Positions 29,590 through 32,018 of a DNA stretch of 40,287 nt are shown here, piece after piece. Both the position numbers and the translations under genes were made by a program. Where the stretch lies: positions 1 to 40,287 of the forward strand of contig DHPR01000008.1 of assembly GCA_002410925.1 (NCBI GenBank). Reading direction: 5' to 3'. The notes beneath the pieces were generated by a model. It did no database searches, was not told where the DNA came from, and saw only the letters and a program-made list of their open reading frames with translations. The stretch is from a bacterium UBP13_UBA5359 (GTDB lineage Bacteria > UBP13 > UBA5359). The first letter of the stretch is position 1, and each line of letters opens with the position of its first letter.

Positions 29590-29703
29590 TTTTTCTCTCC
29601 CGCTGCGCTCTTCGAGCGCCGTTGTTTCGTCAGATACTAAGGCACTGATTTGAGAATTCGATCCCTCATACCTCAGTAACCTGCTTGGCCTTCTATCTCT
29701 TCT

Positions 29704-29955
29704 TTAATGTGCTTCTTTAGCCAGCGCCGTCTTTACCGATACATGCTTTACTCGTCCCAGACGTCCCGTCAGAGCGCTTATCTCATCACCGGAACCATCC
29801 ACAATAATGGAGATGATCGAGACACCGCGCTCCCGATAAGGTATTCCCATTCTGCCGACAATAAGAGCCGCAAAATGGTGTAAGACGCTATTGACCTCTT
29901 CAGCAGCTCTGAGGTCCTCTATTATGATTCCGACAACTCCCAATCGTTTCTGCAT
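29704..29955 (-). CDS. TM1266-family putative iron-only hydrogenase system regulator (ACT-like)
   Basis: RLGVVGIIIED...VN.VLH...IVGRMGIPY...ISALTGRLG; directly upstream of hydG. Confidence 0.88.
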   Translation of the reverse strand: MQKRLGVVGIIIEDLRAAEEVNSVLHHFAALIVGRMGIPYRERGVSIISIIVDGSGDEISALTGRLGRVKHVSVKTALAKEAH

Positions 29956-29970
29956 ATCGCCCTCCGACGA

Positions 29971-30003
29971 ACAAAAAGCCCTCCCTGCAGGGCACAGGAG
30001 GGC
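29971..30003 (-). terminator. Intrinsic terminator (attenuator) in the 5' leader of TM1266-hydG
   Basis: Minus strand GCCCTCCTG-loop-CAGGGAGGGC followed by TTTTTGTT, just before the RBS. Confidence 0.7.
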
Positions 30004-30023
30004 CGAAAGATAAAATCCGTATT

Positions 30024-30104
30024 CGACGCTTCATGCGCCCTTCCGCTTGGGAAAAGCCTTGCGGTCGGGTATTTTAATTACCGGCGCCGGAATAAATCCC
30101 GTCG
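30024..30104 (-). ncRNA. Candidate cis-regulatory RNA (riboswitch-like aptamer), class unassigned
   Basis: Nested stems between the promoter and the leader terminator: CGACG/CGTCG, GCGCC/GGCGC, GGTA/TACC, CC-GCAA-GG and TTCC/GGAA. Confidence 0.45.
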
Positions 30105-30117
30105 CTCGTATAATGCT

Positions 30118-30146
30118 ATTCTATTGCGCAAAGTGATCGATGTCAA
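30118..30146 (-). promoter_or_regulatory. Sigma70-type promoter for TM1266-hydG
   Basis: TTGACA-17 bp-TAGAAT on the minus strand. Confidence 0.7.
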
Positions 30147-30267
30147 ATTTTATTGACATGGCCGGAGCCCGATTATTGTAAAACACTGCTTGTTAGGGTA
30201 TATTCTTAGCATAACAGAGACAAGCATCAGGGGGAAGGCTATTACAGGGCTGTTTGGGAGGTAAGTT

Positions 30268-31152
30268 ATGCCGGAGAATATTCTCTCTTCAAGCTGGGAT
30301 ATAGTTGTTATCGGCGGCGGACCGGCCGGTCTGTCGGCAGCCGTTAATGCCGCTGTGCGCAACAAGAAGGTCCTGGTCCTGGAGCATCAGGGACTCTGTC
30401 GCAAGGTAGCCTGGGCAGAGAAGATCAATAATTACCTGGGGCTGCCGGCGATTGCCGGAAAGGATCTGGCGGCGGCTTATATCAGGCATTTCAAGGAGTT
30501 TGACATTCCTGTCCTTGAAAAACGGGCAGAGATGATAGTCGCTGCGAGCAACGGCTTGATGATCAATATAGGCACCGGAGATATCCAAGCTTCAGCCGTT
30601 ATTCTGGCGCTGGGGGTAATCTTCCAGCAGGCTCTGCCGGGTGAAGAGCACTTTCTTGGCCGCGGCATCAGTTACTGTGCCACCTGCGACGGTCCGCTCT
30701 ATCGCGGCCGGGATGTGGCTGTTTTGGCTTACGGACATGAGGCGGTGGAGGAGGCTAACTTTCTGGCGGAGATATGCCGTAGCGTCTATCTGCTAAAGGC
30801 TACGGACGATATATCCGGGCTGCGTCCGGAAGTTAGAATTATCGATAAGAAGCCTCAGGCGATCAAGGGCGATGATTTCGTAACTCATGTTATCGTTGAA
30901 GGAGAAGAGCTGCCGGTGGAAGCTGTTTTTATCATGCGTCCCACTCTTCCTGCCCAGCGCCTGCTCTTCGGGCTGGAGATCGAGAACGGATTTATCAAGG
31001 TTGGCCATGACCTCTCCTCTTCGGTTGCAGGAGTATGGGCTGCCGGAGATTGCACCGGCAAGCCGCATCAGATATCCAAAGCTGTGGGAGAAGGAGCGAC
31101 AGCTGCTCTCAATGCAGCAAAGTATCTGGAGGAAAAGAGGCCGGGAAGGTGA
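30268..31152 (+). CDS. Thioredoxin reductase-like flavoprotein (probably ferredoxin-dependent FFTR type)
   Basis: GGGPAGLSAA FAD motif, GISYCATCDG redox disulfide and AAGDCTG. The NADPH motifs are degenerate. Confidence 0.85.
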   Translation: MPENILSSSWDIVVIGGGPAGLSAAVNAAVRNKKVLVLEHQGLCRKVAWAEKINNYLGLPAIAGKDLAAAYIRHFKEFDIPVLEKRAEMIVAASNGLMINIGTGDIQASAVILALGVIFQQALPGEEHFLGRGISYCATCDGPLYRGRDVAVLAYGHEAVEEANFLAEICRSVYLLKATDDISGLRPEVRIIDKKPQAIKGDDFVTHVIVEGEELPVEAVFIMRPTLPAQRLLFGLEIENGFIKVGHDLSSSVAGVWAAGDCTGKPHQISKAVGEGATAALNAAKYLEEKRPGR

Positions 31153-31220: not shown

Positions 31221-31256
31221 ATAAAAACCTCCGGAGGGGTGTCCGGAGGTTTTTAT
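31221..31256. terminator. Bidirectional intrinsic terminator
   Basis: Perfect 15-bp inverted repeat ATAAAAACCTCCGGA / TCCGGAGGTTTTTAT. Confidence 0.85.
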
Positions 31257-31274
31257 TCTTTTTTGGCAGGGTAT
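31249..31274 (+). promoter_or_regulatory. SigB/SigF-type general stress promoter
   Basis: GTTTTT-14 bp-GGGTAT ahead of stress-type genes. Confidence 0.5.
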
Positions 31275-31307
31275 ATACGTTGTAAATGGAGTGGAAGGAG
31301 TAAGCCT

Positions 31308-32018
31308 ATGCCTGATGAATATGAACGCGACAGGGAGCGTGCAAAAGAAGAGAGAGCCGAAGAGCATGATAGGGAAGAGCGCAGGCGTGAAGAGCGATAT
31401 TATAGGCCCGGGTTTGACTGGATATCATTCCTTCTGGGGCTTCTTTTGGGAATGGCGCTTCTGGCTGTTCTATGGTTCTTTACCGGCTCACAGCGTATCA
31501 GCCAGGGACAGGCCCCTCAGCAGATAGCCTATGCCAGCCGAATCTGGGCGGCTGCAGGGAAGCCGCAAAAGATAAATGACAGTGAATTTATCCAGGTGGA
31601 TACGGCAGATGGGATCTCTATCTATGTGCGGCGCAATCAAAGCCGGCCTTACGCAGTAATATATATCAGAGAAGGAGAGAATACTTATCAATCCTATCAG
31701 CCGGTAGCGAGCTTCCCCGGCCCGCAGGCAGGCGGAGGAAGCACTGCTACCCCAACTATCCAGGAACCCACTGTCGCTACGCCACAGGATATAGCGCAGC
31801 AACGAGCTAATAAGCTGGTAAAACAGGTTATTATCAATGGTCAGACCTGGAATAAAGAGAACCTGGTAAGCGGTGAAAATCTTGATCTTGAGAGGTACGG
31901 CACATACACAGTGGGCAGGTTTAACGTATATAAGGAGGTTCAGACACCGGAAAATATGTTGAACGATATATATGTCGGTGTAGGATCCGGGTTGTACGTT
32001 CATTATCATAAAGATTGA
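31308..32018 (+). CDS. Hypothetical single-pass membrane protein
   Basis: Charged R/E-rich N-terminus, one TM helix (WISFLLGLLLGMALLAVLWFF), and two small domains joined by a Pro/Thr/Gly linker; RBS AAGGAG. Confidence 0.7.
   Translation: MPDEYERDRERAKEERAEEHDREERRREERYYRPGFDWISFLLGLLLGMALLAVLWFFTGSQRISQGQAPQQIAYASRIWAAAGKPQKINDSEFIQVDTADGISIYVRRNQSRPYAVIYIREGENTYQSYQPVASFPGPQAGGGSTATPTIQEPTVATPQDIAQQRANKLVKQVIINGQTWNKENLVSGENLDLERYGTYTVGRFNVYKEVQTPENMLNDIYVGVGSGLYVHYHKD

Follow-up and report, generated by a model that had tools for sequence, protein, structure and literature searches.

Tyrosine is the substrate from which HydG produces the Fe(CO)2(CN) synthon of the [FeFe]-hydrogenase active site, with release of p-cresol, and we know of no account of how the cell controls this costly step. 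In the 40,287-nt stretch of DNA analyzed here (the window; bacterium UBP13_UBA5359, contig DHPR01000008.1), hydG lies on the minus strand behind a gene of the TM1266 family, which is widespread next to hydG and whose members, to our knowledge, have for two decades been annotated only as "putative iron-only hydrogenase system regulator." The original prediction, made from the letters of this DNA, was that a riboswitch-like attenuator of no assigned class precedes the two genes. The locus raises the questions of whether the sequence upstream of the TM1266 gene is a regulatory RNA, which part of it would act as the sensor, and what would bind there. Titles and abstracts, with subscription journals outside the coverage, yielded no account of TM1266 function and nothing relevant on a hydG riboswitch, a hydG RNA motif, or a hyd-operon attenuation leader; in the same sources, the phrase "iron-only hydrogenase system regulator" appeared only in mentions of the annotation.

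RESULTS

A single leader precedes TM1266-hydG

The features of the locus are listed below in the order in which they would be transcribed, with the basis for each.

30146-30141, minus strand: -35 hexamer TTGACA (sequence; hexamer and distance shared with homologues)
30123-30118, minus strand: -10 hexamer TAGAAT, with a 17-nt spacer from the -35 hexamer
30110-30079, minus strand: hairpin A, a tetraloop-capped stem of 13 pairs interrupted close to its base by a conserved G.G mismatch
30078-30070, minus strand: A-rich single-stranded linker, variable in length and sequence between homologues (alignment A6)
30069-30038, minus strand: hairpin B, the proposed sensor (covariation; the same hairpin in other phyla)
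30037-30027, minus strand: invariant CGC 3' of hairpin B and a small CGC-loop-GCG hairpin (alignment A6; terminator-state fold)
30025-30004, minus strand: middle hairpin, variable in sequence and length across the family
30003-29978, minus strand: G+C-rich terminator hairpin, -16.8 kcal/mol (fold and scan)
29977-29970, minus strand: U-tract TTTTTGTT (sequence)
30041-30022 with 30007-29989, minus strand: predicted alternative antiterminator helix in this genus (MFE of the cut transcript; RNAalifold)
29965-29960, minus strand: RBS GGAGGG of the TM1266-family gene (sequence)
29955-29704, minus strand: TM1266-family gene, 83 amino acids, ATG at 29955 (TIGR03959, 2.4e-33; PF21699, 1.1e-32)
29589-28168, minus strand: hydG, 473 amino acids (TIGR03955, 1.3e-201)

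The gene that follows hydG is encoded on the opposite strand, and the operon therefore consists of TM1266 and hydG only. Upstream, a divergent thioredoxin-reductase-like gene begins at 30268. A structured leader of 77 nt lies between the promoter and the TM1266 gene. The promoter that had been proposed on the minus strand, TTGACA-17-TAGAAT, matches the sigma-70 consensus at 11 of 12 positions. Since promoter-like sites in the 3.5-kb region number 4 against 3.5 expected by chance, the hexamers alone are not significant. The promoter is supported by its position: one of the TTGACA/TAnAAT type stands at equal distance, a few bases 5' of the structure, in all 20 homologous leaders described below, and this part of the original prediction holds. 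Transcription would probably start where hairpin A begins, at about 30111-30110.

Analysis by blastn and with the search model R1 (see below) showed one copy of the leader in the window's genome (G000) and one in each of its genus relatives G001 and G002, with no second copy in any of the three by either method. In the window's genome, hydE is located on contig 31, hydF on contig 9, and two hydA-type genes on contigs 9 and 10, and no leader copy was found at any of these genes. Since these hyd genes lie on other contigs and there is one RNA per genome, the RNA would control only TM1266-hydG. The claim of a cis-regulatory switch controlling these two genes is upheld, whereas its assignment to H-cluster maturation in general was too broad. 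Two metatranscriptome runs gave contigs spanning 29679-29876 and 29711-29953, both inside the TM1266 gene and at a depth of about 3; the leader was outside their reach.

Homologous leaders occur in a second phylum

The window's phylum is represented in the collection by three genomes, all of one genus. All three carry the leader at approximately 90% identity, while the sequence 5' of the -35 hexamer is not alignable. A pattern scan of the species genomes returned 25 loci, 7 of which were listed by model R1 at an E value of at most 1. Three of these had high scores (141.7, 138.1, and 51.9 bits); two of the three are the genus relatives G001 and G002, and the third, on a contig of Armatimonadetes bacterium UBA5829, led to genome G041. 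The 4 weak R1 loci (10.4 to 18.4 bits) and the 18 unlisted loci were taken as chance matches in G+C-rich genomes.

When applied to 151 sampled genomes of the phylum of G041, R1 gave 10 matches at an E value of at most 0.1, of which eight were kept. The other two (L056 and L057) were judged false, as they had no promoter and, by tblastn, no TM1266 gene within 1.5 kb. Model R2, built from 11 sequences, detected the leader in 14 of the 53 genomes in the class of G041. TM1266 is present in 19 of these 53 genomes, including all 14 with the leader. One R2 match (L073) was judged false on the same two grounds as the R1 matches; all three false matches were excluded from the counts. The final set comprised 20 distinct genomic leaders, and in every one of them tblastn identified TM1266 (72 to 100% identity) and then HydG (70 to 100% identity) directly 3' of the leader.

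Run with filters off on the five R2-negative TM1266 loci of the class of G041 and on two further loci (L012 and L013), R2 returned nothing below an E value of 0.1. The two-hairpin form of the leader is therefore not universal among TM1266 genes. On folding, three of the R2-negative loci of this class (L091, L092, and L093) formed B-like hairpins before a terminator and L013 also gave a B-like hairpin; in L088, likewise R2 negative and of this class, such a hairpin was not clear.

Covariation supports two separate hairpins

The 20 leaders, 3 from the window's phylum and 17 from the phylum of G041, were aligned with MAFFT (alignment A6). A model with two separate hairpins, A and B, gave 95.0% paired cells on this alignment, with changes on both sides at 16 of 22 pairs (48 cells). 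None of 500 shuffles reached the model on any of five measures, although the shuffle statistics overstate independence because the 20 sequences are related. Slid controls did not exceed 54% paired cells or 7 double-changed pairs. Covarying homologues upstream of TM1266 genes, which the original prediction had put forward as a check on itself, are present in these data.

Hairpin A showed both-side changes at 11 of its 13 pairs and 94.2% paired cells over the 20 sequences, and its G.G mismatch is kept in 19 of the 20 leaders. Hairpin B showed both-side changes at 5 of 9 pairs and 96.1% paired cells. In the window, B is built of a 3-bp base, a GA/AA loop, a 4-bp middle helix, an AA/AA loop, a 2-bp tip, and a variable terminal loop; across the family, the corresponding order is a GA-opposite-RA loop, a 4-bp helix, an AA-opposite-RA loop, and a 2-bp tip. 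Each strand of B reads CYGA-N4-RAGG, giving the hairpin near two-fold symmetry with two tandem 2x2 purine loops.

The original prediction had drawn a different structure, a multiway junction closed by GCGCC/GGCGC and holding the helices GGTA/TACC, CC/GG, and TTCC/GGAA, with an outer helix P1 (CGACG/CGTCG). Over the 20 homologues, the junction fold gave 81.1% paired cells, with both-side changes at only 4 of 18 pairs, and 452 of 500 shuffles reached its paired fraction. The 5' strand of P1 lies inside hairpin A, where it covaries with a different partner; because its 3' partner falls in the unalignable region, P1 could be counted only in the three sequences of the genus, where it never varies. 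On the same three sequences, the junction fold gave 92.8% paired cells and no compensatory pairs, and RNAalifold preferred a three-hairpin fold with 99.1% paired cells and 3 compensatory pairs. A pairing that formed part of the junction, between the 3' strand of A and the 3' strand of B with its CGC, showed wobble-only compatibility and did no better than shuffles. These data argue against the junction and support two separate hairpins, A and B, as the structure of the leader.

Folded as a single sequence, the window's leader is unexceptional (z = -1.46; 18 of 200 shuffles fold equally well). Given this fold and the chance-level counts of promoter- and terminator-like sites, the case rests on the comparison of homologues and not on thermodynamics.

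Hairpin B shares nucleotides with a predicted antiterminator

The G+C-rich terminator and U-tract that had been noticed just before the RBS were recovered as the hairpin at 30003-29978, TTTTTGTT, and then GGAGGG. Terminator-like sites in the 3.5-kb region number 8 against 3.8 expected; a terminator with a U-tract closes all 20 leaders, with energies of -14 to -24 kcal/mol. Because the 3' arm of the terminator resembles the 3' strand of hairpin B, the latter can take its place opposite the terminator's 5' arm. The predicted energy of this duplex ranges from -6.4 to -26.3 kcal/mol among the leaders, and in 12 of the 20 its value was reached by at most 5 of 200 shuffles.

Each leader was also folded as a transcript cut before the 3' arm of the terminator. 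The MFE fold of the cut transcript contained at least six (9 to 13) pairs between the B 3' strand and the terminator 5' arm in 14 of 20 leaders, and in those 14 B was opened and the variable middle hairpin was enclosed. At full length, the MFE fold contained the terminator in 15 of 20 leaders, and B was formed in 15 of 20 folds constrained to contain the terminator. Since the MFE of the cut transcript favors the antiterminator and that of the full-length transcript favors the terminator, the two states are close in predicted energy. For the window, the terminator state has a predicted energy of -49.1 kcal/mol, against -43.5 kcal/mol without the terminator.

An antiterminator formed by pairing of GGAAGGGC with the terminator 5' arm GCCCTCC had been proposed for this leader. 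That proposal was right in kind, but the predicted helix in the window is longer and imperfect. In the window and 5 other leaders, the predicted antiterminator is such a longer imperfect helix rather than a plain duplex of the B 3' strand with the terminator 5' arm; in the window, it opens the 3-bp base of B, which includes three G residues, and occupies the entire 5' arm of the terminator. RNAalifold showed wobble-compatible changes in this helix within the genus.

The locus therefore presents the parts by which an attenuator is recognized, namely, an intrinsic terminator before the first gene, an antiterminator that cannot coexist with it and draws some of its nucleotides from the sensor, and a sensor that covaries. 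These observations suggest that the leader is very probably a functional attenuator in which B acts as the sensor.

Hairpin B recurs at TM1266 genes in other phyla and in metagenomes

A descriptor of hairpin B was defined as a base of 2 to 3 bp, GA, a helix of 3 to 5 bp, RA, a tip of 2 to 4 bp, a loop of 3 to 15 nt, RA, helix, RA, and base. On both strands of the window's 2.25-Mb genome it matched 15 times; one match was the leader, which was the sole family-like one. In the phylum of genome G028, where TM1266 is present in 90 and HydG in 117 of 301 sampled genomes, the descriptor matched 6 of 20 upstream regions of TM1266 genes taken from different families, and it also matched L013, from a third small phylum. 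In these matched hairpins, the 5' strand contains the SD and the 3' strand contains the AUG and the next three codons. A looser regular expression found a B-type hairpin in 10 of the same 20 regions and in L012 and L105. In contrast, the descriptor had no matches on either strand when applied to 20 regions upstream of hydG in genomes of this phylum with HydG but without TM1266.

Alignment A7, in which 18 hairpins of the leader family were combined with the 12 found by the regular expression, gave 97.1% paired cells and both-side changes at 5 of 8 pairs, figures to be read with the facts that the regular expression imposes two of the pairs in advance and that each group is internally similar. 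Indels in hairpin B led to the exclusion of two leaders (L054 and L072) from this alignment. The hairpin of the window has the features found across phyla: a base, a GA/RA loop, a helix of 3 to 5 bp, an RA/RA loop, and a tip, located before the start of a TM1266 gene. In the matched TM1266 leaders of other phyla, hairpin B is present in a translational version.

Metagenomes were scanned with a pattern consisting only of B and the CGC, which is blind to genes. The scan returned 15 loci, 14 of which were confirmed by R2. All 11 of the loci with enough downstream sequence encode TM1266 (58 to 86% identity), and the remaining three are cut by the end of the contig. The fifteenth locus (L187) had no R2 match and no TM1266 and was taken as a chance match. 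Most of the metagenomic loci form a subfamily that has conserved B, the CGC, and the terminator logic but has an unrelated, longer hairpin in place of A. Because A can be replaced in this way, B is regarded as the conserved core of the element, at approximately 35 nt.

The leader matches no catalogued RNA class

A search of the whole window against Rfam 15 (4227 models) returned no matches at the gathering score, in agreement with the view that the element is uncatalogued. At an E value of at most 10, positions 29850-30300 gave only PyrR (17.4 bits; cutoff, 54) and anti-hemB (14.9 bits; cutoff, 49.5), both on the terminator; no T-box matched in that interval even at this threshold. Rfam searches of 14 TM1266 leaders from other phyla and of 5 hydG leaders returned nothing relevant.

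Two further types of element were considered and rejected. A K-turn, the site of L7Ae and YbxF, consists of a 3-nt bulge followed by tandem G.A/A.G pairs, whereas the loops of B are symmetric 2x2 loops with no bulge in 18 of the 20 aligned sequences. A leader-peptide attenuator would need a short, conserved reading frame whose regulatory codons overlap the alternative hairpins; the sole candidate, with an ATG/GTG at 30034, runs out of frame into TM1266 in G000, and in G001 it terminates after 5 codons. As this reading frame is not conserved, ribosome-mediated attenuation is unlikely.

DISCUSSION

The covariation, the terminators, and the Rfam searches together suggest that a conserved, uncatalogued attenuator is real in front of TM1266-hydG. 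We propose that polymerase would begin at the base of hairpin A and go on to transcribe hairpin B, which is weak because it contains two 2x2 purine-purine loops. If B were left unclamped, its 3' strand and the invariant CGC would pair with the emerging 5' arm of the terminator; in this genus, it would mainly be the base of B and the next 16 nt that form the antiterminator. Formation of the antiterminator would allow read-through into TM1266 and hydG. If an effector clamped B, the terminator would form and transcription would stop before the genes, making the element an OFF switch. We infer this direction from the conservation of B and from the fact that the terminator becomes free to form once B is closed; the role of B as the element that is bound and the identity of the effector are likewise inferred.

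Our preferred, if tentative, candidate for the effector is the TM1266 protein itself, a possibility that the original prediction had also raised and with which the strict co-occurrence agrees. A symmetric oligomer of TM1266 would bind the nearly symmetric hairpin B, possibly with a metal or an amino acid as coligand, and the operon would then be self-limiting. We favor such autoregulation over a small-molecule riboswitch because all evaluable matches precede TM1266 (all 20 in genomes and all 11 in metagenomes), because each genome has one RNA, because B is symmetric, and because TM1266 is a single small domain whose solved homologue is an entry with four chains. The domain spans 83 amino acids and weakly resembles the C-terminal part of NikR (E value, 3.7e-4); a domain search detected no other domain and no DNA-binding domain in the protein. 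The solved homologue, 2NZC, was matched at 2e-13. Counting against autoregulation, no known RNA-binding motif was found in TM1266, and the protein is not notably basic. The position of TM1266 as the first gene downstream in all evaluable loci shows linkage and not function, and the co-occurrence could reflect a single inherited cassette.

A rather less likely alternative is that B, perhaps together with A, is a riboswitch for a small molecule or metal ion, with a metabolite linked to HydG chemistry binding directly and stabilizing B, thereby causing termination, and TM1266 being only a passenger in the operon. Candidate ligands on this alternative are tyrosine, cysteine, SAM, Fe2+, or a product. 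The helices covary around highly conserved unpaired purines, the same hairpin is joined to a terminator in some phyla and to sequestration of the SD and AUG in others, as is the classic pattern among riboswitches, and no protein-binding leader in Rfam matched. Tandem G.A loops are known metal-binding sites. However, metabolite riboswitches usually precede several kinds of genes, and this element was seen before only one, the TM1266-led operon; this context, together with the absence of the element from the 20 hydG leaders without TM1266, argues weakly against a riboswitch. Two 2x2 purine loops in a simple hairpin also offer little in the way of a binding pocket, and with A replaced by an unrelated hairpin in the metagenomic subfamily, the core comes to only about 35 nt.

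It is improbable that a different trans-acting factor (another RNA-binding protein, a small RNA, or a tRNA) is the effector or that there is none, in which case a fixed fraction of transcripts would terminate and the hairpins would tune that fraction or the stability of the mRNA. The closeness in energy of the two states would permit a constitutive partial terminator. Nevertheless, several phyla have conserved hairpins of the B type, with identical unpaired purines, on two kinds of platform, a pattern not easily explained unless there is a specific partner. Neither the T-box nor any other known leader family was matched, and the leader reading frame ends after 5 codons in G001. That the locus is not regulatory at all, but an ordinary promoter-proximal region with a chance terminator-like hairpin, is highly improbable, since the near-chance site counts (4 against 3.5 and 8 against 3.8) and the z value of -1.46 that would suit it are contradicted by 16 of 22 covarying pairs, by terminators in 20 of 20 leaders, and by conservation over two phyla and metagenomes while the sequence 5' of the -35 hexamer fails to align.

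If TM1266 is the effector, there is a close parallel with PyrR. In the Bacillus pyr operon, the binding hairpin for PyrR is an anti-antiterminator, binding leads to termination, and the regulator is encoded by the first gene of the operon. The leader described here likewise has three mutually exclusive hairpins, and its candidate regulator is also encoded first. However, the match to the PyrR model (RF00515) reached 17.4 bits against a cutoff of 54 and covered the terminator only, and TM1266, with a fold like the NikR C-terminal part or ACT, is unrelated to PyrR.

HutP, which acts on the hut leader, is an RNA-binding attenuation protein that forms a symmetric oligomer and recognizes short repeated motifs. 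TRAP, acting on the trp leader, is described as a symmetric oligomer that reads repeated short RNA motifs (PMC3064811, PMC4027176). As with these proteins, a small oligomeric protein with a ligand-binding fold would choose between antiterminator and terminator, a role that is putative for TM1266. In contrast to them, the repeats here are the two strands of one hairpin instead of 11 single-stranded triplets, and the protein fold is another one. Autoregulatory ribosomal-protein leaders that act by attenuation include those bound by L10(L12)4 on rplJL and by L20 on infC (PMC4538822, PMC1865079). They resemble the present element in that one RNA site is used on a transcriptional or a translational platform depending on the lineage. 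They differ in that their sites mimic rRNA, whereas for TM1266 there is no indication of another RNA target in the cell.

Small hairpin-type riboswitches provide a further comparison. In these, a promoter-proximal aptamer shares its 3' strand with the antiterminator, and the platform varies by lineage. The TM1266-hydG leader is similar in the sharing of the 3' strand, in its proposed OFF switching, and in its lineage-variable platform; in contrast to them, it occurs with only one family of downstream genes, and it matched none of the 4227 Rfam models.

What is new here is the two-hairpin terminator form of the leader in the window's three-genome phylum and the near two-fold symmetry of hairpin B. 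We suggest, with some hesitation, that the TM1266 family might be new RNA-binding attenuation proteins, oligomers with a NikR-C-terminal/ACT-like fold that sense a metal or amino acid linked to HydG and clamp the hairpin in their own leader, thereby setting the level of HydG. Such proteins would act by termination in the window's phylum and in the Armatimonadetes-labelled phylum and by blocking the SD and AUG in other phyla. With the RNA as operator and either TM1266 or a metabolite as effector, the leader and the TM1266 family would both gain a concrete, testable function. The leader would represent a novel system of protein-RNA attenuation or, alternatively, a novel class of riboswitch, and in either case, hairpin B would be a compact regulatory hairpin of 35 nt that is naturally coupled to both transcriptional and translational outputs.

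Variation in the TM1266-hydG leader family

A group of metagenome loci from fermentation and other contigs (L177, L180 to L186 and L188 to L190) forms a subfamily that retains hairpin B, the CGC and the terminator of the family, but in which hairpin A is swapped for a long, unrelated hairpin. The TM1266 proteins encoded at these loci are merely 58 to 69% identical to that of the window. In locus L059 of genome G101, approximately 100 additional bases containing further inverted repeats separate the terminator from the TM1266 start codon, whereas this distance is 15 to 45 nt in the other members of the family.

In the phylum of genome G028, the TM1266 leaders (loci L139 to L156 and L012) usually carry an extra unit approximately 20 to 45 nt 5' of the hairpin that covers the Shine-Dalgarno sequence (SD) and AUG, consisting of CUGA, a variable stem-loop and, after it, either AAGG or GAGG. 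The upstream unit of L147 on its own fits the B-type descriptor, which was built from hairpin B. Two or three putative binding units may thus be present in leaders of this group.

Other elements of the window

Further features of the window are as follows.

29590-29703, minus strand: TM1266-hydG intergenic spacer, 114 nt
29605-29619, minus strand: perfect palindromic hairpin within this spacer, directly before the hydG SD
31239-32018, plus strand: ORF of 259 aa, for which no Pfam or NCBIfam family was found
31221-31256: 15-bp inverted repeat with T-runs, preceding the 259-aa ORF

The gap between TM1266 and hydG is far shorter in most homologous loci, as in L061, where tblastn coordinates place it at approximately 10 nt.

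Distribution of hydG leaders and of the cassette

Upstream of hydG in two genomes without TM1266 (loci L162 and L168), we observed a common conserved leader that is distinct from the TM1266-hydG leader and whose end is formed by a hairpin and a T-run. No Rfam family matched this leader at E≤0.01, and it may represent an alternative means of hydG regulation.

The phylum of the window is represented by just three species genomes in the collection searched. The leader, TM1266 and HydG of the window's genome share 70 to 84% identity with their counterparts in the Armatimonadetes-labelled phylum; the leader-TM1266-HydG cassette may have been transferred as a whole between phyla.
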